Below, piece after piece: positions 3,511-64,000 of a stretch of DNA of 64,000 nt. The position numbers were made by a program, and so were the translations under genes. How positions within the stretch are numbered: the stretch's first letter is position 1; every line of letters begins with the position of its first letter. Source of the stretch: Escherichia phage Andreotti. The DNA lies in sequence record MN850610.1, one strand, 5' to 3'. A model generated the notes under the pieces. It did no database searches, was not told the origin of the DNA, and saw only the letters and a list, made by a program, of their open reading frames with translations.

Positions 3511-3531
3511 TTTATTCTCTCTTAATAGTTA

Positions 3532-5553: not shown

Positions 5554-5570
5554 TATGGCTCTCCATATGA

Positions 5571-5598
5571 AAAAGCCCCATACTAAGTACAGGGCTTT
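5571..5598 (-). terminator. candidate rho-independent terminator downstream of 5616-6473
   Basis: imperfect hairpin AGCCCC...GGGGCT with A-run on its plus side (U-run on minus transcript). Confidence 0.4.
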
Positions 5599-5615
5599 AA
5601 AGTAACTTTTAGAGA

Positions 5616-6473: not shown

Positions 6474-6545
6474 TATTTAAACCTCTATCTCAATTTATGA
6501 AGAGTACCAATTCTAGTTTGTTGATACTCTATTGTCAAATACTAA

Positions 6546-6694
6546 TTACTGGAAGTTGTGCTTATCTTTAGAAGCTGCTTTACGTGCAGTTTTTCCAGTT
6601 CTTACACGTTTTTCTTCATAGTATTTTGCTGGTTTTCCAGCAGTGGCTTTTAAGGAATCCCCAAAAACTTTTTCAAATGCTTTAGAGTGTTTCA
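6546..6694 (-). CDS. small basic protein (49 aa), not in ORF track (below length cut-off)
   Basis: manual translation MKHSKAFEKVFGDSLKATAGKPAKYYEEKRVRTGKTARKAASKDKHNFQ; GGAGA about 6 nt upstream of ATG. Confidence 0.3.
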
Positions 6695-6985
6695 TGATAT
6701 TCTCCGATATACTTGATATTCAAACACATTCTCTTTAATTATAAACAGCCAACTAATATTATGCTGAGGCAGCGCAATGATGACTGTAATCATGCTTTGG
6801 TGGAAATCTTCTTTTATCTCAACTTCCCCGTCGCATTTCATAAGGAGCATTCTATAGAACCTATCAATCTTTGTCAAACACTCTTCCTGAAATTTATTTA
6901 AACTTTTTTCTTCAAAGAAGGGTGTGAACCCCTCTCTTTTATAACTATCACTCAGTTTCGAATGGGCAGTCATCTGCATCCTCAC
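6692..6985 (-). CDS. hypothetical protein (97 aa)
   Basis: ORF track; 3' end of primase-helicase gene overlaps its 5' end. Confidence 0.45.
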   Translation of the reverse strand: MRMQMTAHSKLSDSYKREGFTPFFEEKSLNKFQEECLTKIDRFYRMLLMKCDGEVEIKEDFHQSMITVIIALPQHNISWLFIIKENVFEYQVYRRIS

Positions 6986-8933
6986 TTAATACAGGTGGAA
7001 TCGTTGAGCTTTGACGCTGCTCTTCAGTATAGACTTCACCAGTCTCACGGTCAAACACTTCATCCTCATAATGTGGCAAAGAGTCATCATAATGGTCTTC
7101 AGCTTCACCAATACCAAACTGTTGGCGAATATTTTCTGCTGCGCCATCAATGTCAACTCCACAACCAGATGCTTTGATAAGACGCCCTGTATCTGGATTG
7201 TACCAAGTATGACCAGCAATACCAGTTGACTTACCATGACGACGACATTTAGTTAGCTTGATTTTTGTCAAGTTTTTCTTAACAGGGTCTGGGTCAACCT
7301 TGTTACGCATTAACAGAATGTTGTTCATAGAAATCTGGAAATACGCACCAGAACCTTTAATATCCTCTTCAGAGATATCTCCACCTTCAGAGTTAGCCTT
7401 CTGACCACCTGCACTCTTACGAACGTGACAGACGTTCACCTGTGCATACTGGTAGCGTTTGCAACGACGCAATAGCTCAGATAAAACTTCCTCTTCATCC
7501 GTATCTGAACGTGACAGAGCCAACGTAATAGGGTCAAGAATAATAATCTTACAGTCTAAGCTGTTAACAAGATAGTCAACAAACTCCAGCAAGTTATCTT
7601 GGTCAATTGCCCCTTGATGGTCAACGATGTGGATACGACGACCTTTAGACAGTTCTGCGTGTGCCTTCTTCAATTCATCCCAATCACGTTCGTCATAAGG
7701 AATCTCAGAAATCTGCTTGCTAAGGTGGATTGCACAGAGCATCTCCATCAACTCTTCATAGGTATCTTCTACAGGAATTACACCAATATTGTAATCGGTA
7801 TCTTTCCAAGCAGTATAAATCATTTCACGGGTGTAAGCTGATTTACCTACTGAGGATGGTGCTGCCAGAGTTGTAATCTCACCTAAACCGTAACCACCAT
7901 AAGTCAGTCTGTTCAAATCCCCGAAAGATTCTGGGAAAGGAATCAATGGAATCTGACCACGATTCTTCATTGCCTCAAAACCATCTGCGAAGTTCTTGAT
8001 ACCAGCAGGACAGTAACGAGGTGCATTGTAGATACGCTGCTTAAATCCTTCCAGAACTGTATCTTTCTCTTTATAGAACTTTGTCCACCATTCGTTAAGG
8101 TCTTTTACACCCTCTGGATACTGGAATAAACGAACCTTCTCAATCGGAAGGATACCAGCAGCCTCTTTGGTAGCTTTAGCACCTGCTTCATCATTATCAA
8201 AGCACAAGTAAATCTCATCAAATGATGTGATGTACTGATAGTTGTCTTTGATAGACTTAATGTTTGCACCTGATGGGACAGATACGTGACAGTAATTCTT
8301 ACGACGAGACTTGTCCTTAATCGCAAGAGAAGTCATATAGATTGCTGTCGCACATTCCATCTCACCTTCCCAGATGAATAGGCGGTTACCACCTTCTGGA
8401 GCAATCCATGAACCGAACATTGCAAGTTCACCTTTAATATCTCCAACACCACCAGAAAAGTCTTTTAGCTTACCACGTAGGTGCTCTTTTGGATGGTCTT
8501 CTGGATAACGATGACGTACACGGTAACCGACGTGCTCTAGCTTACCATCTTCATTACGTTTGTAAGTTGGATAGAAATGCGCATCAATTTCACCGTCACT
8601 GTCAATGTCAACCTTGATACCCAAACGCTCAAGAACTTTTGCAGGAATCTTCCTATCCTTTAAGTCCATTGCTTCAAGGTTTTCTTTGACATCTTCTAAA
8701 TCCATTCCACGGAAAGTACGGTTTTTATTGTCTGAACCAGTAGAATAAGTGCTCACGATTTGTCCTTTATCAAAATCCCACTCTGGGAAACCTTTGTTAC
8801 AGCTAAAGCAAGTCATCGAATAAGAATCATCGTCATGATGATAGATTGAACCAGCATCTGATGAACCACAACGTGGACATGCACAATGACCAATAAACTG
8901 ACCAGCCTCTTTCAATTTACGACCTTTAGACAT
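6948..8933 (-). CDS. bifunctional DNA primase/helicase (T7 gp4-like)
   Basis: N-terminal Cys4 zinc ribbon (CPRCGSSD...CFSC), central TOPRIM-like region, C-terminal Walker A GLGEITTLAAPSSVGKS and Walker B IIILDPITLA; start moved to ATG at 8933 with GAAGAGG RBS. Confidence 0.85.
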   Translation of the reverse strand: MSKGRKLKEAGQFIGHCACPRCGSSDAGSIYHHDDDSYSMTCFSCNKGFPEWDFDKGQIVSTYSTGSDNKNRTFRGMDLEDVKENLEAMDLKDRKIPAKVLERLGIKVDIDSDGEIDAHFYPTYKRNEDGKLEHVGYRVRHRYPEDHPKEHLRGKLKDFSGGVGDIKGELAMFGSWIAPEGGNRLFIWEGEMECATAIYMTSLAIKDKSRRKNYCHVSVPSGANIKSIKDNYQYITSFDEIYLCFDNDEAGAKATKEAAGILPIEKVRLFQYPEGVKDLNEWWTKFYKEKDTVLEGFKQRIYNAPRYCPAGIKNFADGFEAMKNRGQIPLIPFPESFGDLNRLTYGGYGLGEITTLAAPSSVGKSAYTREMIYTAWKDTDYNIGVIPVEDTYEELMEMLCAIHLSKQISEIPYDERDWDELKKAHAELSKGRRIHIVDHQGAIDQDNLLEFVDYLVNSLDCKIIILDPITLALSRSDTDEEEVLSELLRRCKRYQYAQVNVCHVRKSAGGQKANSEGGDISEEDIKGSGAYFQISMNNILLMRNKVDPDPVKKNLTKIKLTKCRRHGKSTGIAGHTWYNPDTGRLIKASGCGVDIDGAAENIRQQFGIGEAEDHYDDSLPHYEDEVFDRETGEVYTEEQRQSSTIPPVLSEDADDCPFETE

Positions 8934-17225: not shown

Positions 17226-17500
17226 CATCACTTAAGAGTCTTTGAAAAGGGTTTTTTAAGTGATGTGGGGCGAGGCTCGGTGAGGTGGGGTAAGGCATAG
17301 TGCGGTGCTGTTTGGTATGGGTAGTTAGTCTCAGCTACATTAAAATGAGACTTACCTTTTTAAAAGGTCTTTAAACAGGGTCTTTTAATAAGGTTGTGTG
17401 ATGTGATGTATGGTGCTGTGGAGTTTGGTTAGGTCCGGTCAGGTATGGTATGGTGATGTGAGGTATGGGTGGATGGTAGTAGCCACGTTAAAAATCTACC
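17226..17500 (+). repeat. GT-rich composite repeat region 1: hairpin c (17226-17265), GT-rich block, hairpin e (17327-17352), conserved 37-mer f (17357-17393), GT-rich block, hairpin h (17475-17500)
   Basis: elements recur in same order at 18637-19029; blocks built from GGTNN pentamers. Confidence 0.75.
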
Positions 17501-17558
17501 AAGTTTCTAAAGAGTCTTCTGTTGAGGGTTCTTTACAAACAACTTAACAATCAACTAA

Positions 17559-18164
<606 letters not shown>

Positions 18165-18166
18165 TT

Positions 18167-18607
18167 ATGAATACAAAAGCATTAGCAGCAAAGTTTAGTT
18201 ACGGTGACACTGTATCACACTCTGAGATGGATACCTTCTTAGGTATTGTGAAGCCAACTTATCAAGGTGACATTGTTAAGTACGAAGATGAAATGAAGGC
18301 TTATGCGCTTACACGTCTAAACCGACTTGAGAAGTTTATTGAGAAGCTTCTTAAAGAAGAGAAGATTTATCTGGTTGCTTCAATGGGTGTTGGTTATCGT
18401 GTGGTTGAGCCTAAGCATCAAGCAACTATTGCAAAACGCAAAATGTCTGGTAAGATTGGTCGTGCTTTAAAGCAAGCCACTCAAGCGATTGAGAATGTGA
18501 ACACTATGGCACTTAGCCATCAAGAACGTTCACGACTAATTGAACAGCAAAACCACTTAGCTGCTATGAAAGCTAACATTAACAAGCAACGTAGAAAACC
18601 TTTCTAA
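18167..18607 (+). CDS. hypothetical protein (146 aa)
   Basis: ORF track; followed by terminator. Confidence 0.6.
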   Translation: MNTKALAAKFSYGDTVSHSEMDTFLGIVKPTYQGDIVKYEDEMKAYALTRLNRLEKFIEKLLKEEKIYLVASMGVGYRVVEPKHQATIAKRKMSGKIGRALKQATQAIENVNTMALSHQERSRLIEQQNHLAAMKANINKQRRKPF

Positions 18608-18616
18608 GTTGACTAG

Positions 18617-18641
18617 GTAGCCTCTTCGGAGGCTCCTTTTT
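18617..18641 (+). terminator. rho-independent terminator
   Basis: AGCCTC-TTCG-GAGGCT hairpin followed by CCTTTTT. Confidence 0.6.
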
Positions 18642-19029
18642 AAAAGGTCTTTAAACAGGGTCTTTTAATAAGGTATTGTTCGGTGTTGTATGGTAGGGTC
18701 TGGTCCGGCAGGGTCTGGTTCGGTCCGGTAGGGTCTGGTATGGGTAGTTAATCGGAGCTACATAAAAATTCGATTACATCACTTAAGAGTCTTTTAAGAG
18801 GGTTTTTAAGTGAGGTGTGGCACGGTAATGCTAGGTAGGGTCAGGTCAGGTCAGGTGAGGTAAGGTGTGGGTAGTTAGTCTCAGCTACATTAAAATGAGA
18901 CTTACCTTTTTAAAAGGTCTTTAAGAGGGTCTTTTAATAAGGTATTGTATGGTGTAGTTTGGTTAGGTATGGTTGGGTGTGGTAAGGTAGGGTATGGAAG
19001 GATGGCAGTAGCCTTATAAAAAATCTGCC
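18637..19029 (+). repeat. GT-rich composite repeat region 2: f (18637-18673), GT block, hairpin e' (18751-18774), hairpin c' (18777-18815), GT block, hairpin e (18877-18902), f (18906-18943), GT block, hairpin h' (19004-19029)
   Basis: direct repeats of region 1 elements; e/e' and h/h' differ by stem-preserving substitutions. Confidence 0.75.
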
Positions 19030-23288: not shown

Positions 23289-25631
23289 TTAAGCAGTTCT
23301 CACCCAAGCCATTAACTTGTAGAACTGGTTAGTAACACTAAATGCTGAACCAGAACCTGTACCACCAGTGTTACCACTTACTGTATGACTGTGAGCACCA
23401 ATACCAACACTGTGAGCATGGTTACCAGCAGAAGCGGCAGTACCACTTACGGAGTGGGTGTGAGCACCGTTAGCATCGGTGTAACCCGGTCCTACACCAA
23501 TACTACCACCACCACCACCAGAGTAGTGTGTAGAGTTCTGACCAATCCACGAAATGGAATGGTTGTGGTTACCAGCAGATGAAGTAGAGCCACTTACAGA
23601 GTGAGTGTGAGCACCAGTCGTGTTAGTGTTTTTTGTTCCGTAGTCAAACGATGAGGTAGTCGCAGAAAAACTGTGCGTGTGCGAAGGTAAGTTACCAACA
23701 GCTAACGTTACAGAATCTGAACCACCAGTTGTAGCAACATCTGAACCATTTGCTGCTGCAATTCTAATAGTCCTACCAACACCATTCTTCAGATACGTCC
23801 AAGTTAGGCCAGGCAGTGCTGTATTAGGGTTAACATTACTGTTAAACCACGTCACAATACCTACTGGATAGATTTTATTCAGGTCTGTAGAGTCACTAAT
23901 TGCTTCTGCAATCTTCTGGTCAGTTTCAGCTTTAGTGTATGCACCAATCTCTGAAGGGGTAGGTTTCTGAGCTTCAGTGTAAACCTTAGACCATTCAACC
24001 TCAAAGCCAAGTGTGTCTCTGGCTGACCTGTACCACATCCCACCATTTTTCGATTCAAATCTTAATTGTGCAGATGGTGTTAGGGCTTTCGCATTAGAGG
24101 CCATGTGCAAGACTAAACGGTTTTGCCCACTAGATTTTGTCTCAAGATAGATTCCTGATGGTTGGTCCCAAGCCACACCACCAGCAGCCTCGGTCTTCGA
24201 AGCTCTGAATGCTGACCAGAAATACTTTGAATCGGCTTTGTCTTTACCGTAATACCTTGCATCAAAGTTTGTGAAGTTGCTAGGTTGTACTTGACCACCA
24301 ATTACTAAGTTTGCATTAATTGATACTTCGGAACCAATGCTTAGTCTTTTACCAGTTTTATAGTTATACAACCTAACAGTGTCACTGCCGTCGTCATCAT
24401 TGCCAACATACCACCTATTCGTTCCATCATAATCCTTACCCATAATGTAAAGTTCGGAGGTTGATTTTCCTTGTAACACGAGAGCTTCACCATTAGTGTT
24501 AATAACCTGCTTTGCAGTGAACGTGTTACTTCCATTAGTTCTTGCAATTGTACTTAATGTTGCTGCTGGAATGTATCTAGAGTCAATGTTAGCCCAATCT
24601 GAAGGCTGAACTTGACCAGTGATTTTCACAGTCTTAGTAGTGGTAATCACATTTGACAAAGAGATAGTTGTACTCGTGGTGTAGTTATGTAGGTTGACTA
24701 CAGAATCAGAGTTATCAGTCCCTAAGTAGAACTTGTTTGTCCCATCAGCCTTCTGCCCCAGCAAGTATAGTCCAGTTGCAGCAGTGGCATTCTTAATGAC
24801 TAGTACAGCGTTATCTCTGGTGATATTGAACTCTCCTACAAAATTGTTAATACCCCTGAAGGTGTTATTGCCAACTAGCTGTGCAAATCTCTGATTAGCT
24901 GCTGTCTGTGTGAAGTATCTTGCATCCAAGTTAGAGAAGTCAGAAGGTTGCACTTGACCATTGATTGATAAAGACCTATTAAAAGAAGCAGCCGTGCCTA
25001 GAGTGAGGATGGAACCTAGTTTACTCTCGATTTGAACATCAAGACTACCCCTAATCAGGTTCCCAATAGCCCAAGTTTTTTCATTACTTGCATCCCTACC
25101 TACAATAGCAGAGTATGCTCTATCCCCACTCACAGGAGACCTTAGTGTTAACTGTTCCCCATTTGCTACAATTGTCTGTCTAGAGTTAAATGTGTTTGTA
25201 ACAGCCAACCTTGCATATCTTGCGTCATTCTCTTCATTAGTTCTCATCCCAAGTTCATTAGGGCTTGGCTTATTCAGAGTATGATAAACAGTTGCAGACC
25301 TTGAAGCATCTGCAATAGTTAGTTTAAGACCGTTTGCATTGATTTTAAAAGCCTTTAAAACATCCCCCATAGTAATCTCAGAAGAGTCTGTAGGGTCAAA
25401 TACTGCCTTACCACCATAAAGTAACTTGACAATTCCTAAGTCACCCGTCATAGTGCTACCAGCAATCTGAACAAATCTTTCTAGTTTAAAAGACGCTAAG
25501 AAGTCTTGATAGGTCATTCGACGGTCTTCATCACCTAACATTTCAGGTCTCTTTTTAACCCTGACATGGAGAAGGTCGTCTGAACGGATTGTGTCGATTG
25601 AGTTTAATTCACTCAACTTGTAATCTGCCAT
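23289..25631 (-). CDS. tail fibre protein (780 aa) with His-rich HxH repeats near C-terminus
   Basis: Ser/Thr/Gly/Asn-rich repeats; C-terminal AHTHSV, NHNHSI, AHSHTV, NHAHSV motifs; C-terminus paralogous to 25678-26826. Confidence 0.7.
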   Translation of the reverse strand: MADYKLSELNSIDTIRSDDLLHVRVKKRPEMLGDEDRRMTYQDFLASFKLERFVQIAGSTMTGDLGIVKLLYGGKAVFDPTDSSEITMGDVLKAFKINANGLKLTIADASRSATVYHTLNKPSPNELGMRTNEENDARYARLAVTNTFNSRQTIVANGEQLTLRSPVSGDRAYSAIVGRDASNEKTWAIGNLIRGSLDVQIESKLGSILTLGTAASFNRSLSINGQVQPSDFSNLDARYFTQTAANQRFAQLVGNNTFRGINNFVGEFNITRDNAVLVIKNATAATGLYLLGQKADGTNKFYLGTDNSDSVVNLHNYTTSTTISLSNVITTTKTVKITGQVQPSDWANIDSRYIPAATLSTIARTNGSNTFTAKQVINTNGEALVLQGKSTSELYIMGKDYDGTNRWYVGNDDDGSDTVRLYNYKTGKRLSIGSEVSINANLVIGGQVQPSNFTNFDARYYGKDKADSKYFWSAFRASKTEAAGGVAWDQPSGIYLETKSSGQNRLVLHMASNAKALTPSAQLRFESKNGGMWYRSARDTLGFEVEWSKVYTEAQKPTPSEIGAYTKAETDQKIAEAISDSTDLNKIYPVGIVTWFNSNVNPNTALPGLTWTYLKNGVGRTIRIAAANGSDVATTGGSDSVTLAVGNLPSHTHSFSATTSSFDYGTKNTNTTGAHTHSVSGSTSSAGNHNHSISWIGQNSTHYSGGGGGSIGVGPGYTDANGAHTHSVSGTAASAGNHAHSVGIGAHSHTVSGNTGGTGSGSAFSVTNQFYKLMAWVRTA

Positions 25632-46540: not shown

Positions 46541-46616
46541 TAAAATAACTTGGAGAATCCGAAGGGACTCGAACCCTTATAAACCTGTTTTGCAGACAGG
46601 CACATATCCATTTCTG
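46541..46616 (-). tRNA. tRNA-Cys (anticodon GCA)
   Basis: manual cloverleaf: 7-bp acceptor GAATCCG/CGGATTC, T-arm AAGGG-TTCGAGT-CCCTT, anticodon loop CUGCAAA, CCA encoded. Confidence 0.75.
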
Positions 46617-46620
46617 TCAC

Positions 46621-46713
46621 GGATTCAAATTGGAGGAAGATACCAGACTTGAACTGGTACACCGATTTCTCAGCTACTGGCAGTTTAGCAAACTGCTCCC
46701 TTACCTTTTAGGG
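46621..46713 (-). tRNA. tRNA-Ser (anticodon GCU), class II with long variable arm
   Basis: 93 nt; acceptor GGAAGAT/ATCTTCC, anticodon stem GCAGT/ACTGC, loop UUGCUAA, T-loop TTCAAGT. Confidence 0.7.
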
Positions 46714-46724
46714 TTAATCTTCCA

Positions 46725-47459
46725 TTATTTCTGTAATGCGCTCTTCATTTCTGGTGTTGCAATAGTGTCAATCACACCAGTTTTACAAGCATCGTCAAAC
46801 CAGTCTGGTAAGATACCTGCTAAGAACCCATTGATATTCGTTTTAAGGTACTCTGCAATAAGGGCAGCTTCTTCTTCAATCATCTGCACAACTTCATCTG
46901 CATAAGCTGTAATCTTTGAAATACCTTCATTAATCTTACTGACAGCTTGGTTAGCTAAATCAGAAACAGTATCAAGACCCTTATCAATAGCATCTTGTAA
47001 GTCACTTAACACACCATTAACACTATCTAGTGTACTGTTCATCATGTCAATAGCTTTTTGACCATACTCTGTAGCAACACCCATGATACCACTGAATGGT
47101 GTACAACCAACTTGTTCTCCTGCTGCACCCATAACATTGGAATACCCCTTTGCTACCTGCATACGTGATGAAAACTCATCAATAGATTTTTGACCGTAGT
47201 CTGTCAGAGTTTTAGTAGTTGCTGTAGTGCTTGTAAGGCTTGTTGTAAAGCTGTTTAGAAGGACTGTTGTAAGTCCAGCAGCAACAAGTTTCTCCTTCAT
47301 TGTAGGGTCTGTTACAGAACTAATAGAGCTTACAAGTGATGTAGAAGCAGCTACGGTTCCACCGAGAACTGCTGCACCAGTAATAAGCGGGTTAGAGAAC
47401 CCTTTACCAGTTTTTAAGAGATTAAAAATCTCCTTACCTTGTTCTGTCATCTCTTTCAT
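46725..47459 (-). CDS. hypothetical protein (244 aa) embedded in tRNA array
   Basis: track ORF 46725-47522 trimmed to ATG 47459 (MKEMTEQ...) so it does not overlap tRNA-Phe; Ser/Thr/Ala-rich. Confidence 0.55.
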   Translation of the reverse strand: MKEMTEQGKEIFNLLKTGKGFSNPLITGAAVLGGTVAASTSLVSSISSVTDPTMKEKLVAAGLTTVLLNSFTTSLTSTTATTKTLTDYGQKSIDEFSSRMQVAKGYSNVMGAAGEQVGCTPFSGIMGVATEYGQKAIDMMNSTLDSVNGVLSDLQDAIDKGLDTVSDLANQAVSKINEGISKITAYADEVVQMIEEEAALIAEYLKTNINGFLAGILPDWFDDACKTGVIDTIATPEMKSALQK

Positions 47460-47475
47460 TAAGCACCTTTGAAAT

Positions 47476-47552
47476 TGGTAGTCCAGTGGGATTTGAACCC
47501 TCTTCTCATGTTTTTCAGACACGCGCTTTAACCATATAAGCTACTTGGACTA
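47476..47552 (-). tRNA. tRNA-Phe (anticodon GAA), tentative
   Basis: anticodon arm CGTGT-CUGAAAA-ACATG; T-loop TTCAAAT with one stem mismatch; ends approximate. Confidence 0.55.
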
Positions 47553-47557
47553 TAAAT

Positions 47558-47633
47558 TGGGGTGACCTACGGGATTTGAACCCGTATAGACCATGTTCAC
47601 AGCATGGGTCATTACCGTTTATGATAAGGCCAC
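47558..47633 (-). tRNA. tRNA-His (anticodon GUG)
   Basis: acceptor with one G-U, T-arm ACGGG-TTCAAAT-CCCGT, anticodon stem CCATG/CATGG, CCA encoded. Confidence 0.7.
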
Positions 47634-47664
47634 ATTTAAGGACTCTCGCAAGAATCCTTAGAAG

Positions 47665-47740
47665 TGGCAGCGGCATAAGGATTTGAACCTTAATAGGACA
47701 GCTTCAGAGGCTGCTGCATTGCCAGTTATGCTATACCGCT
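47665..47740 (-). tRNA. tRNA-Gln (anticodon CUG)
   Basis: T-arm TAAGG-TTCAAAT-CCTTA; anticodon loop CUCUGAA; CCA encoded. Confidence 0.65.
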
Positions 47741-47745
47741 AAATT

Positions 47746-47824
47746 TGGTACTCCATATCGGATTCGAACCGATACATAACACAGATTTTAAGTCTGGCCT
47801 CTCTGCCAATTGGAGTAATGGAGC
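47746..47824 (-). tRNA. tRNA with Leu anticodon UAA, short variable region (atypical)
   Basis: T-arm ATCGG-TTCGAAT-CCGAT, anticodon loop CUUAAAA, D-loop AAUUGGCAG, A73, CCA encoded, 79 nt. Confidence 0.55.
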
Positions 47825-47826
47825 AT

Positions 47827-47902
47827 TGGCGGGGGATGTTGGAATTGAACCAACTTCTTCGATTTCAAAGACCGAGGTTTTAACCTTGTAAACTAATCCC
47901 CT
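47827..47902 (-). tRNA. tRNA-Gln (anticodon UUG)
   Basis: T-arm GTTGG-TTCAATT-CCAAC, anticodon loop CUUUGAA; 1-72 mismatch. Confidence 0.6.
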
Positions 47903-47910
47903 TTAAATCT

Positions 47911-48468
47911 TTACTTTCTCAGTGGATGAATAAAGAATGCCAACATAACTCTTTCCCTTGAGAATGCTCTTTCTTCTGGGACAACACTTTTTAGTTTCCA
48001 TCCAACATAAATTCTCCAGTAAAACTGTTTACCAAAGATTTTAATTGACGGAATAAAAGCGAATAATCCCCAAGCATTGTTGTTCCACATTAGGAGATAA
48101 CCTGTCTGATTATCTTCAGGGTCAGAACTTACGTTGATATTACCTTTCCACTTAGTAACATCTTTTACATCTCTTCCTAATACATGGTAAGAGAAGTTAT
48201 AAGCTTTGTTTCTCCAGAGCCATCCAACTCTCTGCATATAAACACCGAGCTTGCCAATCTTTCTAATCTTAGCCCATCTCTCAACGTGGCCTTTATCACC
48301 ATCAATCGGGTTGTCATAGGTCTCCATCCATCTGAATCCAAAAGGTAGATGCCCTTTCTTCTCACTGTAGAATGGAACTACGAAAGGTGCTAAGATGACT
48401 GCTAGGGTTGCTGCAAATGGTTCTAGTAAAGCTAGGAAAATCCATGAAGCATACTTCAAATATCTCAT
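47911..48468 (-). CDS. hypothetical membrane protein (185 aa) within tRNA array
   Basis: N-terminal hydrophobic segment WIFLALLEPFAATLAVILAPFVVPF; AAGAGG RBS. Confidence 0.55.
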   Translation of the reverse strand: MRYLKYASWIFLALLEPFAATLAVILAPFVVPFYSEKKGHLPFGFRWMETYDNPIDGDKGHVERWAKIRKIGKLGVYMQRVGWLWRNKAYNFSYHVLGRDVKDVTKWKGNINVSSDPEDNQTGYLLMWNNNAWGLFAFIPSIKIFGKQFYWRIYVGWKLKSVVPEERAFSRERVMLAFFIHPLRK

Positions 48469-48486
48469 CTAAATAGCCTCTTAAAA

Positions 48487-48564
48487 TTGGTGTTCCAAGA
48501 CGGATTCGAACCGTCACTAATACAAGGTTTGAGCTTGCATCCTCTGCCAATTGGGATACTGGAA
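48487..48564 (-). tRNA. tRNA with Leu anticodon CAA, short variable region (atypical)
   Basis: T-arm GACGG-TTCGAAT-CCGTC, anticodon arm GCAAG-CUCAAAC-CUUGU, D-loop AAUUGGCAG, A73. Confidence 0.55.
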
Positions 48565-48565
48565 C

Positions 48566-48640
48566 ATGGTACTCACTAAAGGACTTGAACCTTTTTCTTC
48601 ATCTTGTAAGGGTGATGTTTTACCATATAAACTAAGCGAG
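48566..48640 (-). tRNA. tRNA-Val (anticodon UAC)
   Basis: T-arm AAAGG-TTCAAGT-CCTTT; anticodon stem 5 bp incl. G-U, loop CUUACAA. Confidence 0.7.
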
Positions 48641-48736
48641 TGTGAAAGAGGTCTGAAGTTGTGCCGCTAACTCAACTCCGTGGAATTTGTTACGGTCTTC
48701 AGTTGACACCAGCGGTCTTTCACTTGACCTCTGAAT

Positions 48737-48813
48737 TGGTGCTGCTCACAGGACTCGAACCTGCATTTCCATCCTTACAAGGGATGTGTAATAGCCAATT
48801 ATACGAAAGCAGC
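48737..48813 (-). tRNA. tRNA-Thr (anticodon UGU)
   Basis: T-loop TTCGAGT; anticodon stem 5 bp, loop CUUGUAA. Confidence 0.7.
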
Positions 48814-48819
48814 ATTGTT

Positions 48820-48894
48820 TGGAGCATCCAGAGGGAATCGAACCCTCAACCTCAGTTTGGAAGACTGTAATTTTCCCGTTTAAACTATGGATGC
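48820..48894 (-). tRNA. tRNA-Gly (anticodon UCC)
   Basis: perfect acceptor, T-arm GAGGG-TTCGATT-CCCTC, anticodon loop CUUCCAA. Confidence 0.7.
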
Positions 48895-48900
48895 ACTAAT

Positions 48901-48976
48901 TGGTGGAGTCACTGAGAATTGAACTCAGTTCCCAAGTTTGCAAAACTCGAATTTTAACCATATAAACTATGACCCC
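48901..48976 (-). tRNA. tRNA-Ala (anticodon UGC)
   Basis: G3-U70 pair in acceptor (Ala identity element); T-arm CTGAG-TTCAATT-CTCAG; anticodon loop UUUGCAA. Confidence 0.7.
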
Positions 48977-48982
48977 ATTGTT

Positions 48983-49058
48983 TGGTACAGGTGGAGGGAA
49001 TTGAACCCATCGTCTTACTGATTAAGAGTCAGCCGCATAACCATTTTGCTACACCTGC
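48983..49058 (-). tRNA. tRNA-Lys (anticodon CUU), tentative
   Basis: T-loop TTCAATT with one stem mismatch; anticodon loop CUCUUAA. Confidence 0.55.
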
Positions 49059-49065
49059 ATTAATT

Positions 49066-49143
49066 TGGTAGGAGACAAGGGATTCGAACCCTCAAACATC
49101 TCGTTCTAAGCGAGATAGGTTTACCAATTACCGTCAATCTCCC
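49066..49143 (-). tRNA. tRNA with Leu anticodon UAG, short variable region (atypical)
   Basis: anticodon arm TCTCG-CUUAGAA-CGAGA perfect; T-loop TTCGAAT; D-loop AAUUGGUAA; A73. Confidence 0.55.
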
Positions 49144-49400
49144 ATTAAATCTTTTTAGAGAACTCCTAAGAACCTAAGCAACAAGGTTCCACAACAAGCT
49201 GTAATAACCTTAGAAGCCCTCTAAAAAGACCTAAAAAGGTCTTTGCATAGTCTTGTTTAATCCGGTGACTAGAACCTTTGGAGAGCTTGATATTATCTCT
49301 TCTCCGTGACACCTACTAGGTGTTTTATCAGTGTGTACGACAATACACGAGGGATACCAAAGCAACATCCGAATGAAGCTTGGCTTTAAATCTTATTAGG

Positions 49401-49488
49401 CGGTAAGTAAAGGAGTCGAACCCTCACCGTATCTCTACAGTGGCAACTGTTTTCAAGACAGTTTGGCTACCATTAGCCGCTACCTACC
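49401..49488 (-). tRNA. tRNA-Ser (anticodon UGA), class II
   Basis: 88 nt; 6-bp anticodon stem AACTGT/ACAGTT, loop CUUGAAA; 19-nt variable arm; T-loop TTCGACT; CCA not encoded. Confidence 0.65.
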
Positions 49489-49501
49489 CCTAATAAGATT
49501 T

Positions 49502-49584
49502 TGGCATGGGACGGAGGAGTTGAACCCCTTTGAAACGGTGTTGGAAGCCGTTGCTCATGCCTTAGAGTCTTAACATCGTCCCAT
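49502..49584 (-). tRNA. tRNA-Trp (anticodon CCA) with enlarged D region
   Basis: perfect acceptor ATGGGAC/GTCCCAT, anticodon arm ACGGC-UUCCAAC-ACCGU; about 7 extra nt between acceptor and anticodon stem. Confidence 0.5.
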
Positions 49585-49724
49585 ACTATAATTCGAAGCT
49601 TACCGTATTATCTCAACACTGTAAAGCCCCTTCTCAGATTATTTACATGTTCTGGAAAACATGAGATACAGACCACCTCCCTACAGGAAGACCCGCTAAG
49701 GTCGTCTAAGTAATCTGCTAACTA

Positions 49725-49801
49725 ATTGGCACACCCTACAGGATTCGAACCTGTAACTAACGATTTAGAAGACCGTTGCTCTATCCAATTGAACTAAGGG
49801 T
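49725..49801 (-). tRNA. tRNA-Arg (anticodon UCU)
   Basis: T-arm ACAGG-TTCGAAT-CCTGT; anticodon loop CUUCUAA. Confidence 0.65.
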
Positions 49802-50049
49802 GCATTAATCTTTAAAGACTCTCTTAGAAAGCCCTTAAAGATGCCCACCTTATTAATCATACCGTGGGCGAGTACGCCAAATTCTTTGATGAGGGATTGG
49901 AAGACCTCACTGGTGTTTAGCCTATCAAGCTACTGCCAGAAAAACATTGTCGTTTGCATTTATTTTAAATTTGCAAAATAGACGCTACGCAACGAAAACT
50001 AAGGGTACTATAAAGTAGTCACATCTCAATGTCAACAACTTTATTGAAT

Positions 50050-50124
50050 TTGGTTGTAGGTGAGGGTATCGAACCCTCTTCTAACGGTTATCAGCCGTTT
50101 GCATTACCATTTATGCTAACCCAC
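50050..50124 (-). tRNA. tRNA-Ile (anticodon GAU)
   Basis: T-arm GAGGG-TTCGATA-CCCTC; perfect 5-bp anticodon stem, loop CUGAUAA. Confidence 0.75.
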
Positions 50125-50126
50125 AA

Positions 50127-50203
50127 TTGGAGGTTCAGATGGGATTCGAACCCACATTCATAGGGCTTATGAGACCCTTGCATTACCTTATCTGCGACTG
50201 AAC
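50127..50203 (-). tRNA. tRNA-Met (anticodon CAU), elongator-type
   Basis: perfect acceptor GGTTCAG/CTGAACC; T-loop TTCGAAT; anticodon loop CUCAUAA. Confidence 0.65.
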
Positions 50204-50207
50204 CATT

Positions 50208-50283
50208 TTGGTAGAAGTGGAGGGATTCGAACCCATCGCCTGTCAGATTAAAAGTCTGCCGCATCACCATTCTGCTACACTTC
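50208..50283 (-). tRNA. tRNA-Lys (anticodon UUU)
   Basis: T-loop TTCGAAT; anticodon loop CUUUUAA. Confidence 0.6.
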
Positions 50284-50293
50284 CATTAAATTA

Positions 50294-50440
50294 TCTTTGT
50301 AGATAAGCTACCCAGACTTGCTTAAGGTCTGTAGCGATGTGCCTTTATGGGTTTAAAATCTAGAATTTACCCTTTCACCCTTTGTGGTCGCATACTCACA
50401 GGTAAGCTTAATAACTTATCTACAAAGATAATTACCAGAC
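50294..50440 (-). repeat. structured non-coding element bounded by a perfect 17-bp inverted repeat
   Basis: TTATCTTTGTAGATAAG (50294-50310) and its exact reverse complement (50424-50440) enclose 113 nt containing nested inverted repeat GCTACCCAGAC / GTCTGTAGC. Confidence 0.6.
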
Positions 50441-50713
50441 CGTTATTTATCATCTTAAGTGCTACCATTACACCAACTCGACATCTGCCGAGTGAAGGAA
50501 TCGAACCTTCGCCTTTTCTTTACCGAGAAATAGATTGTTTAAGTTTTGCTGTAAACGGTCTTCTGTAAATTTGTTGAGCCAGACCAAGTTTTAAATTTTT
50601 CAAAATTGAATTGGCTTGAAATTTTAAGTAACTTGCTGAATTTGGTCTTCTGCTCCTTTAAAGGATACTCGTAAGAACCCTTTAAGGGAGGGGCTAAATA
50701 GCCCTCTCAAAAT

Positions 50714-50789
50714 TGGCGAGGTATGCGAGAATCGAACTCGCGGCTCAGGAGAGACAGTCCCGTATTTTGCCCATCTAAACTAATACCCC
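50714..50789 (-). tRNA. tRNA-Asp (anticodon GUC), tentative
   Basis: acceptor GGGGTAT/ATACCTC, T-arm GCGAG-TTCGATT-CTCGC; anticodon loop CUGUCUC has U at position 37. Confidence 0.55.
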
Positions 50790-50795
50790 AAAAAT

Positions 50796-51224
50796 CTATG
50801 TACCATTTCTTAGGTACTTCTCTTTACGCCTTGCTGGATTGTAGTGCTTGCGTCCTTCTGCGTTTTTAGCAAGTCTGCAAGGTTCACACCTACAACCTCT
50901 TCTATAACCAGACACTGTGCCATGTTTAATTGGTGTGTATTTCCTATCACCAATCTGGGCTGGCCTAGTTGCTTTTGAATTACATTGTATGTGGCTGTAA
51001 GATATATTGTCAAGTGAGAAGAAAAGCTCTTTTGCATTCTCTTCATGTCTCCAAGGAACTTTATGTTCTATAGAGAAATCAACTCTGGACATTTCTTTTC
51101 CACAATGGTGACACTTATTCTGTCCAGTTTTACAAACCAAATCAAAGAGTAAATCTTTAACAAGCCTGTTCTGGGCTGTTCCTAAGCTCATACCAAGTTG
51201 TGACTTGTAAACTTCATTCTTCAT
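50796..51224 (-). CDS. HNH endonuclease (putative homing endonuclease) inside tRNA array
   Basis: CHHCGKEMSRVDFSIEHKVPWRHEEN...H (HNH-type His/Asn spacing); C-terminal GYRRGCRCEPCR. Confidence 0.7.
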   Translation of the reverse strand: MKNEVYKSQLGMSLGTAQNRLVKDLLFDLVCKTGQNKCHHCGKEMSRVDFSIEHKVPWRHEENAKELFFSLDNISYSHIQCNSKATRPAQIGDRKYTPIKHGTVSGYRRGCRCEPCRLAKNAEGRKHYNPARRKEKYLRNGT

Positions 51225-51246
51225 AGTATCAACATCTTATTAAAAT

Positions 51247-51331
51247 TGGTGCGCCCATCTGGACTCGAACCAGAAACCTTGAAAGGGACAGTTTTACAGA
51301 CTGCTGCATTGACCATCTCTGCCATGAACGC
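51247..51331 (-). tRNA. tRNA-Tyr (anticodon GUA), class II
   Basis: 85 nt; T-arm TCTGG-TTCGAGT-CCAGA; anticodon loop CUGUAAA; hairpin variable arm; CCA encoded. Confidence 0.65.
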
Positions 51332-51341
51332 ATTTAAATTT

Positions 51342-51418
51342 TGGCGGTTAGTCAGGGATTCGAACCCTGTGCCATTCGCTTAACAGGCGACCGCACATAC
51401 CTTATGTGCTTCCTAACC
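51342..51418 (-). tRNA. tRNA-Asn (anticodon GUU)
   Basis: T-arm CAGGG-TTCGAAT-CCCTG; anticodon loop CUGUUAA. Confidence 0.65.
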
Positions 51419-51495
51419 TTAATACATTGCCAGACCGTGTTTTTTCTTTTATCCGCAAAAAGTATTTTGTTGCTGTAAACGGTCTTCTGTAAATT

Positions 51496-51571
51496 TGGAG
51501 GCGGGTGCAGGAGTCGAACCTGCCGATACCATGCTAATGAGACATGTGAGACGCCCTTTCTCTATACCCGC
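51496..51571 (-). tRNA. second CAU-anticodon tRNA (Met, or Ile2 via lysidine), irregular acceptor
   Basis: T-arm GCAGG-TTCGACT-CCTGC; anticodon loop CUCAUUA; acceptor pairs only with a 1-nt register shift. Confidence 0.45.
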
Positions 51572-51663
51572 AATTCTTAATGACCAGACCAAATCTCTTC
51601 TTTGTCCGATTTACCTTCAGATGAATAAGATTAAGTTTGCTGTAATTGGTCTTCTGTCAAAAC

Positions 51664-51741
51664 TGGCGTTCCAGAAGGGATTTGAACCCTCAGATATCCA
51701 CTTTGAAAGAGTGGTGACTATACCATTTTGTCTACTGGAAC
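51664..51741 (-). tRNA. tRNA-Glu (anticodon UUC)
   Basis: perfect acceptor; T-loop TTCAAAT; perfect 5-bp anticodon stem, loop CUUUCAA. Confidence 0.7.
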
Positions 51742-51748
51742 ATTAATT

Positions 51749-51825
51749 TGGTCTCTGTTGGAGGATTTGAACCTCCGGCCTTACCGCCCCAAACGGAACG
51801 CTCTACCAAGCTGAGCTAAACAGAG
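51749..51825 (-). tRNA. tRNA-Pro (anticodon UGG)
   Basis: perfect acceptor CTCTGTT/AACAGAG, T-arm GGAGG-TTCAAAT-CCTCC, anticodon loop UUUGGGG (G37). Confidence 0.7.
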
Positions 51826-59937: not shown

Positions 59938-60013
59938 CTGTATGTGTTCGTTTTGCAATCGCTGAAATGATTAACAAGGCAATCTTAAAAGATGCCTATG
60001 GAGAGACTAAGTA

Positions 60014-60238
60014 ATGATTAAGACACCTGTACCAATTTTTGGATTTCCTTCTATAGAAGAGTTCAAAGTTTATCTTGACAAAAACTTCTACAACGAGCAG
60101 CCTGTTACTTTGCTGAAGAGTGACTTATCAGAGCTTCTTGATATGGTTATCAAGGCAACTTCTGAGAAGGGACCTGAGCAGAAAGCTGAGAAGAAGACTA
60201 GTAAGAAATCCGATAAGAAGACTGAAAAGTCTGAGTAA
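60014..60238 (+). CDS. hypothetical protein with lysine-rich C-terminal tail (74 aa)
   Basis: ORF track. Confidence 0.45.
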   Translation: MIKTPVPIFGFPSIEEFKVYLDKNFYNEQPVTLLKSDLSELLDMVIKATSEKGPEQKAEKKTSKKSDKKTEKSE

Positions 60239-60290
60239 TAACTTAGGGGTTACTTGATAGCCCCTTTGTAGAAACTTAGAAGGTAGCGAA

Positions 60291-60755
60291 ATGAAAATTA
60301 AAGAAGTCGTTCAAAAAGCAATGCTTGACAACTCAACTAAAGATGAAATGTACAAAGAGATTTGTGATAAGTTGAATTGTTCAAGACATGCTGCTAAGGC
60401 TCTTGTACATTGTTTTATCTGGGAATGCTCAGAGGCTTATATGCAATATGTAGCTTTTGAGAGTTCTCACTTGCTAGGTGATGTAGAAGCTGGTGATAAG
60501 CTAAAAGAGCCTGAGATGAAAACAGTCCCTAGAGTCGGTAATACATACCCTCTTAAAGATTTCAAGACTGGAAAGATTGTTGCAAAAGGTGTAGTAGAAT
60601 CTGTCTATCATGATGGTAAATACTTACTTAAAATATTTGAGTATGATAGCCGCTATACACACTTATGTGGTCTTACATTCTTAGTAACAGAAGAAGACCT
60701 CATTAAAAACAATGACAACAAGTTTGCAGTACCAGATTACCAAGTTTTACGATAA
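60291..60755 (+). CDS. hypothetical protein (154 aa)
   Basis: ORF track. Confidence 0.5.
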   Translation: MKIKEVVQKAMLDNSTKDEMYKEICDKLNCSRHAAKALVHCFIWECSEAYMQYVAFESSHLLGDVEAGDKLKEPEMKTVPRVGNTYPLKDFKTGKIVAKGVVESVYHDGKYLLKIFEYDSRYTHLCGLTFLVTEEDLIKNNDNKFAVPDYQVLR

Positions 60756-61317
60756 TGGTGTGATATCTATGGAAAAAGATAACTTAAAAGAAGTTGAAGG
60801 TAACTACCTAGTACTTGACTGGAGTGATGTTCGAGAAGCACTCTCCGAAGAAAATCTTGACTGGTTCGAACAAATTATCTTTGCAGTACGGCATAACAGA
60901 GAAGTTGAAAATGGTAAAGAGCCATTAGAAGGAATCTTTGTAGAGAAGTCTTATCCGTTCTATGAAGACACTTTACAGAAAGTTAAAATGTACTTTAAAC
61001 AGAAGAACCGTAAAGTGGTCACTATGGTATCTCTTGGTGGACAGAGTATGTCTATTATGGAAGATATCAACCCTAAGAGACCGAGTAAAGGCGTTTGTAT
61101 AAAAATCACAGGACATGAAGAGTATATCTCAGTTGATGACTTTAGTGCATTCTGTAATGGCTCTTGTGTCTTTAATGGTTTTCACTATGATATCCGAGTG
61201 TACCCAATCAAGGGAGATGATATCATGATGCAGGTATTTGATAACAACAATGGCTTTACTCATTTTTATCAGACAACCAAGTCATCACTAAAAACAGTTC
61301 TGGAAACACTGATTTAA
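60712..61317 (+). CDS. hypothetical protein (201 aa; start uncertain, alternative ATG at 60769)
   Basis: ORF track; last gene of plus operon, followed by terminator. Confidence 0.5.
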   Translation: MTTSLQYQITKFYDNGVISMEKDNLKEVEGNYLVLDWSDVREALSEENLDWFEQIIFAVRHNREVENGKEPLEGIFVEKSYPFYEDTLQKVKMYFKQKNRKVVTMVSLGGQSMSIMEDINPKRPSKGVCIKITGHEEYISVDDFSAFCNGSCVFNGFHYDIRVYPIKGDDIMMQVFDNNNGFTHFYQTTKSSLKTVLETLI

Positions 61318-61328
61318 AATATCTTAAG

Positions 61329-61356
61329 AGCCTCCTTAATTGGGGGCTTTTTATTT
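61329..61356 (+). terminator. rho-independent terminator ending plus-strand operon
   Basis: AGCCTCC-TTAATT-GGGGGCT hairpin followed by TTTTTATTTTTAT. Confidence 0.6.
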
Positions 61357-62904
61357 TTATAAAATTTTATCGGTTGTCCCAACCTCTGGGTCACCATCAT
61401 ATGTGAACAAAATATCTATCCTTCTTAACAACCCTCTTAATCTTACTCTCTATATAGTTATATAGTACTATATAGTATCTTAGTAACTATCTAGTGGTCT
61501 TAATAGCCCCTCTGTATAACCCTTCTAACAAGCCCTCTAACAAACCCTCTTAACAACCTATACAATCACCTTAACCATCCCTCTACACCTTCTTAGAAGC
61601 TCCTATACACCTCTTAATCTCTATGTCACATAGATGGCTCTCTATAGGTGTTCACTAGGTATTACTAAGCCTCTATATAGACTGTTTTAACAAACTTAAC
61701 AGGGATATCTTTACAGACCTTATCTCACAAGGTCTAACACGGTACTAACAAGGTATCTTATAAGCCTGTTATTACCTGTATTTTTAAAAGACTGTCTAGG
61801 TAATTATTCAGAATCTTAAAATTTTTATAAAATAGGACTATCAAGTCATTTTTTAGGGTCTTTGAAGGAACTGAAAAATATCTGTCTAGGATGTATATCT
61901 GCTTGGTAACCCTTAACAGCTCCCTTACAAGTACTTTGCAAAATTTTAAAATATCCTTAACAATCTCTTAACAATTCTCTCAAGCTCTTAACATCTCTTC
62001 AGAGGTCTTAACAGATTCTTAACAGAACTAACAAGGCTGTAACAAATTCTTAACAGTCGATACATGGTCTTTATAGTTTCTTAACAGATGACTAACAAGA
62101 GCTAACAAGTTAATTTTAAAGAGTTATTTTGTTAAGATAATTAACAAGTTCCTAACAAGTGTTTAATCTTTTTAACAAGCTATTAACATGGTCACTACTC
62201 TTTTCTTATCATTCCCTTTCCTTTCTTAATTGGTATTGTTACCAATCCCTAGTGATTCCTTAAACATGCCTCTTAAAAGCTCTCTATAGCCCCTTATAAG
62301 TTCTTTTAAGCCTCTTCCTAGTATTTACCCCTCAACTGTATGGATAGCTCTTTATAGGGCTTTTCAGGGGCTTTTAAGGCTATGCCAAAGGTTCTTACAA
62401 GGCTTTTACGTGGTCTTAACAGAGATTTAACAAGGGGCTAACAAGTTGCTAACAAGTGCCTTAAAAGCATAACTATGTAGGGATTGTTAAGAAATTGTTA
62501 AGAAAATGTTAAGGGGGCTAGCATTTACGTAACTTTTAAGCTACTTCAAAGTAACTTTAAAGCCCCTATAACATACTTTTAAGACACTAACAAGCCCTTT
62601 TTAGTTATTCACAAGATAGCTAACGAGATAATAAAGCTTATACCCTTATAAGATTCTTTTAAGGCTCTGGGAAGCTTTATAAAGGGCTTTTAAGGGTGAG
62701 GTAATGCAATCCCTTAAGTTAGGTTGATAAGGCTGTTATAGGGCGTTATAGAGCGTTTAAGGGGTTGCCCTTCCCTCTCGGGTTATGGGCTTATATTTAA
62801 GTTGATTTGATAAAAGGCTATAGAGTAGACTATAGAGTTATTGCTTTTTAAGGTCTGATAAGATTCTGGAAAGGAAAGGGAAAGGGATTGTATAAGGATT
62901 TGAT
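61357..62904. repeat. ORF-free iteron field: dozens of copies of CTAACAAG / CTTAACAG / TTAACAA and TATAGAG-type motifs
   Basis: no ORF of 60 aa or more in any frame across about 1.55 kb; runs with 10-11 bp phasing (TAACA starts at 62009, 62020, 62030, 62041, 62051, 62082, 62093, 62103); lies between convergent terminators. Confidence 0.8.
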
Positions 62905-62908
62905 AGAC

Positions 62909-62933
62909 GTAAAAAAGCCCCATTTAAGGGGCT
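62909..62933 (-). terminator. rho-independent terminator for minus-strand genes 62972-63830
   Basis: AGCCCC-ATTTAA-GGGGCT hairpin preceded on plus strand by GTAAAAA (U-run after hairpin on minus transcript). Confidence 0.55.
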
Positions 62934-62971
62934 GTAAAGGTATCTGGGGCTATTTAGCCCCGTTGCGGCGT

Positions 62972-63220
62972 TTAGTTAATGCCTTCTTTGTCGTAGTACA
63001 GGGATACAATTTTTTCACCCCAATAGTGATAAGTGTAACCCTCTTTGAGAACTTCCTCTTTTGTTTCTTTCCAGAATTCATCAGAGGGGTTGTAGTCACT
63101 GATGGTCTGGCTGATAAGGCCTTTCACCATTTCAAAGGCGTTATCAGTACCTACAAGGTCAAATTTAACGTCCAGAGAGTAGAAGCCAAATTCGTTAACA
63201 GTTGCGCGGATAGTAGCCAT
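62972..63220 (-). CDS. hypothetical protein (82 aa)
   Basis: RBS GGAGA 7 nt upstream of ATG; preferred over overlapping plus-strand ORF 62888-63247. Confidence 0.5.
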   Translation of the reverse strand: MATIRATVNEFGFYSLDVKFDLVGTDNAFEMVKGLISQTISDYNPSDEFWKETKEEVLKEGYTYHYWGEKIVSLYYDKEGIN

Positions 63221-63299
63221 TTTAGAATCTCCAGTTTAGGAAGTTGATTAAGGGTTTTGTTTAGCGGGGAAGGTCATCCCCTCCCCGTTGATTGACAAT

Positions 63300-63830
63300 T
63301 TACAGACTTTTGATTGTTTCGTCAATATCTTTTTCAATATCTTTTAAAGTTTTTTCTAAGTTCTTGATATTGAAAGATAAACCTTCTCCCAGTGTCTTAG
63401 AGTAACCGCTAGGTCGATGGTCGTAAAGCTCGATTTCTTCCACTTCGAAGAGGCTAACAGTCCAACCGCCTACGCCATAGGCTGAAGCAACAGAGTTTTC
63501 AGGGGCTTTATAGAACTTGTTAAGATTCTGGATAGAACGCTCATAAGCCATTTTATAGCCGTTTAAAAGGTTTTTAACGTGGTTACGAACGTTTTTACAC
63601 TCATCTAAGTAAATCTCTAAGAATAACGGCAATAATTCCGCTACAGCTTGCATAAAGTGAGAGACTACAACGGTTGCAACATTACGACGATGTACATAAT
63701 AAGCCCCGTTTTCTGACTTAGTGATGGTTGCAAAGTGTACCCCATTGCAGCGAAATTCGTAGGTATCTTTAACAGGCTTAGACATTACAGCATTTGAACG
63801 AATGTAGTTGATAGCTTGAAATTTGTTCAT
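63300..63830 (-). CDS. hypothetical protein (176 aa)
   Basis: track ORF 63300-63857 trimmed to ATG 63830 (MNKFQAINY...) with AGGAGA RBS; upstream codons of track ORF read through the palindrome centre. Confidence 0.55.
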   Translation of the reverse strand: MNKFQAINYIRSNAVMSKPVKDTYEFRCNGVHFATITKSENGAYYVHRRNVATVVVSHFMQAVAELLPLFLEIYLDECKNVRNHVKNLLNGYKMAYERSIQNLNKFYKAPENSVASAYGVGGWTVSLFEVEEIELYDHRPSGYSKTLGEGLSFNIKNLEKTLKDIEKDIDETIKSL

Positions 63831-64000
63831 TTTAGAATCTCCTAGTTTAAGGACCACTAAATAAAGTCCTTAAACTAGGAGATTCTAAAATGAACAAATT
63901 TCAAGCTATCAACTACATTCGTTCAAATGCTGTAATGTCTAAGCCTGTTAAAGATACCTACGAATTTCGCTGCAATGGGGTACACTTTGCAACCATCACT
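63712..64000. repeat. long perfect inverted repeat (palindrome) centred near 63862, truncated by window end
   Basis: plus 63879-64000 is the exact reverse complement of about 63721-63840; inner arms CCTAGTTTAAGGAC / GTCCTTAAACTAGG flank an 11-nt loop. Confidence 0.85.
63888..64000 (+). CDS. mirror copy of the 5' end of gene 63300-63830 (partial; continues past window)
   Basis: plus strand encodes MNKFQAINYIRSNAVMSKPVKDTYEFRCNGVHFATIT, identical to N-terminus of the minus-strand gene. Confidence 0.35.

Follow-up and report, generated by a model that had tools for sequence, protein, structure and literature searches.

A perfect palindrome at the end of a Felixounavirus sequence is probably a fold-back chimera

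Results

The window, by which we mean the whole stretch of DNA that was analysed, comprises 64,000 nucleotides of Escherichia phage Andreotti (MN850610.1), and megablast searches identify it as a Felixounavirus, a Felix O1-like myovirus of Escherichia and Salmonella. The first 6 kb are 96.9% identical to Felix O1, and the last 2 kb were matched by 256 records in megablast, with phage dune as the best match (93%). Local BLAST against the whole dune genome showed that the window is collinear with it across 63,854 bases (dune 27068 to 88511, continuing from 1 to 2353). The main collinear blocks are 84–97% identical, and the sole structural break is found at 63854. Past this junction about 24.7 kb of conserved genes are expected, corresponding to dune 2354–27067 and including rIIA, rIIB, the spanins, polynucleotide kinase and nrdD, but they are not in the window. 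A Pfam scan of five window proteins identified a T4-type large terminase, a family A DNA polymerase and a primase-helicase. Megablast of positions 60000–64000 gave no match in E. coli complete genomes or PLSDB plasmids.

Some other parts of the window deserve a description of their own. A cluster of 25 tRNA genes is located on the minus strand at 46551–51825, similar to other Felixounaviruses (Felix O1 has 22), and within it a gap at 50740–51327 has no alignment to dune. The tail-fibre gene, an ORF of 780 aa at 23289–25631, contains a segment of about 1.1 kb (24073–25186) that does not align to dune at the nucleotide level, while its flanks are 93–97% identical to dune; this pattern is typical of a host-range module swap, and judging from the alignment the segment may be one. 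A second noncoding repeat field, at 17250–19003 and annotated in dune as repeat_region only, consists of three related units. These share a conserved head (CCTTTTTAAAAGGTCTTTAAAcAGGGTCTTTTAATAAGGT), and in each of them a GGT-periodic tract comes next, whose period is 5 or 10 nt, for instance GGTCCGGTAG or GGTCA; the field may serve as an origin of replication or as an array of protein-binding sites.

The early gene at the right end of the window (Table 1) encodes a protein identical to dune_2, and an exact-protein look-up matched dune alone; two other window proteins had no exact-protein match. A Pfam match to Phage_T4_Y16F is on record for the product identical to dune_2, and in the present scan the protein gave no Pfam match at E≤0.001. 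The gene is read from an ATG at the complement of 63828–63830, with a GGAGA ribosome-binding site at 63838–63842, and the region that natively lies upstream of it has been displaced by the fold-back described below.

A repeat search found one inverted repeat at the window end, with arms of 135 nt that are 100% complementary and separated by a spacer of 11 nt, CACTAAATAAA. The window cuts the right arm at base 64000, and the 135 nt are thus the visible part only. The first-pass annotation had described a perfect palindrome spanning a gene start and cut by the window end, which the repeat search bears out, but its figures of at least 140 bp per arm and a loop at 63857–63867 have to be replaced by those given here and in Table 1. 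The window has no second long perfect inverted repeat, and the one other inverted repeat of at least 40 nt is just 85% complementary. Folded as a single strand, the palindrome has an energy of −166.7 kcal/mol as compared to −24.5±3.5 kcal/mol for shuffled sequences (z = −40), which excludes chance.

Table 1. Features at the right end of the window and at the segment corresponding to the genome ends.
Feature	Position	Strand	Remark
Noncoding repeat field, 1.65 kb ("iteron field")	61318..62971	.	Between convergent gene clusters; contains the terminal-repeat segment
Segment homologous to the Felixounavirus direct terminal repeat	61905..62518	+	Single, collapsed copy
GC-rich hairpin GGGGAAGGTCATCCCCTCCCC of the neighbouring cassette copy	63266..63286	.	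Sister copy retained in the window
Early gene, 176 aa from ATG	63300..63830	-	Homologue of Felix O1 ORF22
Left arm	63720..63854	-	Native Felixounavirus sequence, collinear with dune up to 63854
Fold-back breakpoint	63854..63855	.	Top strand meets its own complement; inferred from the junction sequence
11-nt "loop" CACTAAATAAA	63855..63865	+	Reverse complement of native TTTATTTAGTG, which follows ...AAGGAC in relatives
Right arm	63866..64000	+	Exact reverse complement of 63720-63854, truncated where the window stops

Within the left arm are the first 37 codons of the early gene, its start codon and ribosome-binding site, and 12 nt of the upstream cassette ending in ...TAGTTTAAGGAC. In the right arm the gene start is repeated on the plus strand, with its ATG at 63890–63892. 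Both the ribosome-binding site with about 37 codons in the left arm and the same N-terminus on the plus strand of the right arm had been noticed in the first reading of the sequence, and they are found at the positions given above.

The breakpoint lies in a dispersed intercistronic cassette, made up of start codon, ribosome-binding site, spacer and hairpin, which is placed ahead of many of the early-cluster genes in a constant orientation. In dune at least six copies are found within 2340–7440, including a 43-nt exact repeat across the breakpoint, and several further copies are present in Felix O1 and in IMG/VR contigs. The copies in the window are at 63218–63290 and 63828–63854. On the gene strand the cassette begins with the hairpin GGGGAGGG-ATGA-CCTTCCCC and goes on with ACTAArTAAAGTCCTTAAACTAGGAGATTCtAAAATG. 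The cassette looks like a terminator or RNA-processing hairpin combined with a standardised translation-initiation region.

The alignments of all 256 related records stop at query 1853–1855, i.e. window ~63852–63855, which is the inner end of the left arm, and megablast found the palindrome in none of them. Past the breakpoint dune and allfine have an intergenic region of about 200–220 nt and then the next minus-strand early gene, with no fold-back. The sequence of the relatives at the breakpoint is ...CATTTTAGAATCTCCTAGTTTAAGGAC-TTTA(C/T)TTAGTG-GGGAAGGTCAT(T/C)CCCTCCCCGTTGATT... (the hyphens mark the borders of the stretch), so that GGACTTTA(C/T)TTAGTG is found at the position of the loop. 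Their continuation can be written GGAC-TTTAyTTAGTG-GGGAAGGTCATyCCCTCCCC, after which comes the next gene, and the native strings leading into that gene are ...AAGGACTTTATTTAGTGGGG and GGACTTTATTTAGTGGGG. The reverse complement of the spacer in the window, TTTATTTAGTG, is exactly this native continuation in allfine, in Felix O1 and in one IMG/VR contig, and differs from that of dune by one mismatch. This implies that positions 63855–64000 are one contiguous native block that has been flipped, and that the 11-nt loop, being part of it, is not a neutral spacer. Compared with the left arm, the flipped block extends 11 nt deeper into the intergenic region, and the full native string is present in the window solely in the flipped orientation.

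In native orientation the junction reads ...AAGGACTTTATTTAGTG-GTCCTTAAACTAGG..., where the hyphen marks the join. It means that a top strand ending in ...GTG(G) passes into a backward copy of the same-sense strand that starts at the C of GGAC. The possible microhomology at the breakpoint amounts to 1 nt (G:C), and the two break positions are offset by 11 nt; at the native site, GGACTTTATTTAGTGG, the complementarity is one G:C pair and no more. The sequence of the relatives at the breakpoint contains no pre-existing inverted repeat centred on this site. The native GC-rich hairpin, GGGGAAGG-TCAT-CCCCTCCCC, begins right after the 11 nt and is gone from the window here. Furthermore, the arms show zero divergence, whereas the closest relative differs by 7–8%, which implies that no evolutionary time has passed since the join.

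We also searched for the arrangement outside the genus records. The exact junction string of 35–37 nt had no match in IMG/VR, JGI metagenome contigs or GTDB genome contigs, and a gapped pattern designed to catch every fold-back located no more than 30 nt from the cassette matched nothing in IMG/VR or in JGI metagenome contigs.

Discussion

The palindrome is in all likelihood a technical fold-back chimera, created during amplification, sequencing or assembly, and not a telomere or a gene duplication; it is most likely not a real biological feature. Both halves come from one locus on opposite strands, the loop is native and offset, and nothing like it was found in the 256 related records, in IMG/VR or in the JGI metagenome contigs. 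Both strands of a single locus are represented, the breakpoint is sharp, the offset small and the microhomology minimal; together with zero divergence, absence in relatives and the loss of about 24.7 kb, this is the signature of a fold-back chimera. The first-pass annotation had offered three explanations: a covalently closed hairpin telomere or other terminal structure, a true inverted gene duplication, and a fold-back assembly or library artefact. It is the last of these that is favoured by the flipped and offset native block, by the absence from all 256 relatives and by the lack of divergence between the arms.

The physical ends of the genome bear on the first of these explanations. Felixounavirus genomes end in direct terminal repeats of 581–613 bp, as found by Bal31 digestion with run-off sequencing and by PhageTerm (PMC4837284, PMC6454146, PMC8303462). 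The repeat measures 608 bp in UAB_Phi87, where Bal31 digestion was combined with run-off sequencing (PMC4837284), 613 bp in Ro111lw (PMC6454146) and 581 bp in Pr103Blw (PMC8303462). For Felix O1 itself short terminal repeats have been inferred (PMC3185647). The GenBank record of UAB_Phi87 opens away from the physical ends, and the terminal repeat was therefore placed by means of SPJ41 and other records. The SPJ41 record begins and ends with the same 613 bp (100% identity), and both copies map to the terminal-repeat segment of the window (Table 1). The independent records of ECP2307, ZX4221, NBSal004, NBEco004 and NBEco005 begin exactly with this segment and hold it twice; that of pEP20 also begins exactly with it, yet has it in one place. 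The segment is single in the window because the assembly collapsed it, as happens in shotgun assembly.

The noncoding field around the terminal-repeat segment is rich in short repeats of the types TTAACAA, CTTTTAAGG and TATAG, and is about 90% conserved across the genus. A stretch of about 100 nt just to the left of the segment (61438–61541) has no counterpart in dune, at the point where both ends of that record come together; a few bases may be missing from it at its arbitrary opening point, or the stretch may be variable.

Two genes separate the centre of the palindrome from the terminal repeat; the distance to the inner edge of the repeat is 1,337 bp, and the physical left end is about 1.95 kb away. 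Since the ends map to 61905–62518 and the centre is about 1.3 kb away, the palindrome is not at a genome end. The link to the genome ends that had been suspected from the adjacent iteron field is thus real insofar as the field carries the terminal repeat, but it does not extend to the palindrome, which lies 1.3–2 kb away.

A covalently closed hairpin telomere, or a replicated telomere junction at a physical genome end, is consequently a very improbable explanation. A perfect inverted repeat near a noncoding repeat field is superficially tel-like, and N15-type phages of E. coli are described as having such ends (PMC12624138), but the ends of the genus are direct terminal repeats mapped to the segment above and not to 63860, the window encodes a T4-type large terminase, and the relatives run straight on into 24.7 kb of conserved genes. 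No protelomerase is annotated among the 152 features of the collinear dune genome, and it is mainly this annotation that speaks for its absence, the Pfam scan of the window having covered five proteins. The tel sites of protelomerases are typically fully symmetric, but the central 11 nt of the palindrome are asymmetric.

A second explanation is that the palindrome is a true heritable inverted duplication (A-B-B'-C) in a viable phage, in which the native sequence resumes just past the window. A short inverted copy of the start of gene 63300–63830 would in this case have been inserted upstream of that gene. We find this improbable. Template-switch inverted duplications do occur in nature, and the window ends within the right arm, but the zero divergence of the arms and the absence of the palindrome from all 256 relatives speak against a heritable duplication, and there is no short inverted repeat at the centre to nucleate one. 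It would also leave two back-to-back start codons, 59 nt apart, with the native upstream region removed. Moreover, DNA palindromes in E. coli are described as hotspots for double-strand breaks that are processed by SbcCD (PMC4245961, PMC3315005), which implies that a perfect palindrome of at least 135 bp around a centre of 11 nt is not expected to be stable in enterobacteria.

A technical fold-back could have come about in the following way. A normal Felixounavirus genome would have been joined to its own reverse complement at 63854/63855, when a DNA strand ending in ...AAGGACTTTATTTAGTG(G) stopped just before the GC-rich intercistronic hairpin. Its 3' end would have primed on the same-sense strand 11 nt back through the single G:C pair and copied backwards. 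An equivalent route would be that the template and the complement of one fragment were read as a single molecule, and both routes would lead to ...AAGGAC-CACTAAATAAA-GTCCTT.... With one or more chimeric reads, the assembler would then have lengthened a contig that was broken inside the dispersed repeat cassette. Positions 63855–64000 would thus lie outside the phage genome, and in the true genome the hairpin would come next, followed by about 24.7 kb of early genes. The sequences show the anatomy of the junction, how the relatives continue and where the genome ends lie; the technical origin, the stall of the polymerase at the hairpin and the exact laboratory step are what we infer.

The location of the breakpoint, in a multi-copy repeat beside a stable hairpin, makes it a natural spot for a contig to break and for a polymerase to stall. 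We considered a pure de Bruijn graph artefact through an inverted cassette, and rejected it because all copies in dune share one orientation; it is also contradicted by the k-mers of the junction, which are native nowhere in the window. With no inverted cassette and a junction string that is not native, a chimeric molecule or read must have existed, and since the junction is in the consensus, this molecule must have had some read support. Nucleation by the natural GC-rich hairpin was rejected as well, because the centre of the palindrome is 11 nt before the hairpin and outside its loop. Mirror-padding during the extraction of the window was likewise rejected, because padding leaves no asymmetric centre of 11 nt.

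What can be said against a technical origin, besides the read support that it requires and the microhomology of 1 nt only, is that a real snap-back in vivo would yield the same sequence. The palindrome would then be a real but non-heritable molecule, formed by in vivo snap-back or as a head-to-head palindromic by-product of replication or packaging, and we see only a small chance of this. A stall of phage replication at the cassette hairpin, some 1.3 kb inward of the left terminal repeat, would give rise to it, and it would have to be abundant enough in the DNA preparation to assemble. The same junction anatomy would be expected, and 1,337 bp separate the site from the inner edge of the repeat, the physical left end being about 1.95 kb away. 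In phage T7, Chung, Nardone and Hinkle reportedly found in 1990 a hairpin end on concatemers, located at a natural inverted repeat beside the repeat junction, and this end is said to have been put forward as an intermediate of processing. Furthermore, palindromes in E. coli are described as giving rise to inverted chromosome duplications centred on themselves (PMC3315005). On the other hand, there is no natural inverted repeat at the centre of our palindrome, where the pairing is 1 bp only, and neither the 256 genus records nor the contigs of IMG/VR and JGI showed anything comparable. The centre also lies apart from the terminal repeat, unlike the hairpin reported for T7, and a head-to-head dimer with more than 64 kb per arm is too big to be packaged in a head for about 88 kb. 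By analogy with T7, a hairpin-capped or head-to-head molecule might be tied to the regeneration of the ends, but a real snap-back of either form seems to us unlikely. If it did arise in vivo, it would offer a handle on the replication and end-processing intermediates of myoviruses with terminal repeats.

A technical chimera being the preferred reading, the palindrome is above all a matter of data quality. For at least the last 146 bases, and for anything beyond them, annotation as a gene duplication, inverted repeat or telomere is to be avoided, and the record probably lacks or misplaces about 24.7 kb of the genome. It is suggestive that a record starting just past the breakpoint, with the window as its last 64 kb, would have a total of about 88.7 kb, equal to one genome plus a mirrored tail of 146 nt, which is about the length of one short read. 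The phage is an ordinary Felixounavirus, and little biological weight should be put on the palindrome. For palindromes at contig ends in general, a quick and reusable check is to ask if the loop is the reverse complement of the native continuation in the relatives.

Among known systems, the hairpin end of T7 is similar in that the direct terminal repeats of the phage are likewise short and exact and the snap-back is near a genome end. The T7 hairpin, which reportedly forms at a natural inverted repeat, differs from our case, where the site has no natural inverted repeat and is separated from the terminal repeat by 1.3 kb and two genes. The phages N15, PY54 and phiKO2 also have a perfect inverted repeat in the linear genome of a phage with an enterobacterial host; unlike them, Felixounavirus has direct terminal repeats and terminase packaging, dune has no annotated protelomerase, and the palindrome has an asymmetric centre and lies away from the genome end. 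The inverted duplications of E. coli that are controlled by SbcCD and RecA (PMC3315005) resemble the palindrome as large inverted duplications around a small loop, but as described in that source they need a pre-existing central palindrome, and the native site here has none.

The closest likenesses are with artefacts. Artificial palindromes are known in long reads from amplified DNA (10.1101/173872), and unamplified Nanopore and PacBio libraries also contain fold-back reads (PMC12338684). As compared to these fold-back, or duplicated inversion, reads (Heinz, Meyerson & Li 2025, PMC12338684), the join is here found in an assembled consensus. In multiple displacement amplification (MDA) with phi29 polymerase, more than 85% of the chimeras are "inverted sequences with intervening deletions", formed when displaced 3' ends re-prime within the same branched molecule (PMC1855051), and phage sequencing from MDA material has given about 50–60% chimeric reads (PMC13108922). 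More than 70% of MDA junctions have 2–21 nt of complementarity (PMC1855051), as opposed to the 1 nt at the window junction, and by this comparison the short microhomology may speak against MDA as the source. In other respects the palindrome is like the inverted chimeras of MDA: its halves are at one locus on opposite strands, the 11-nt offset resembles the "intervening deletion", and the reaction would be intramolecular, with a displaced 3' end as the primer.
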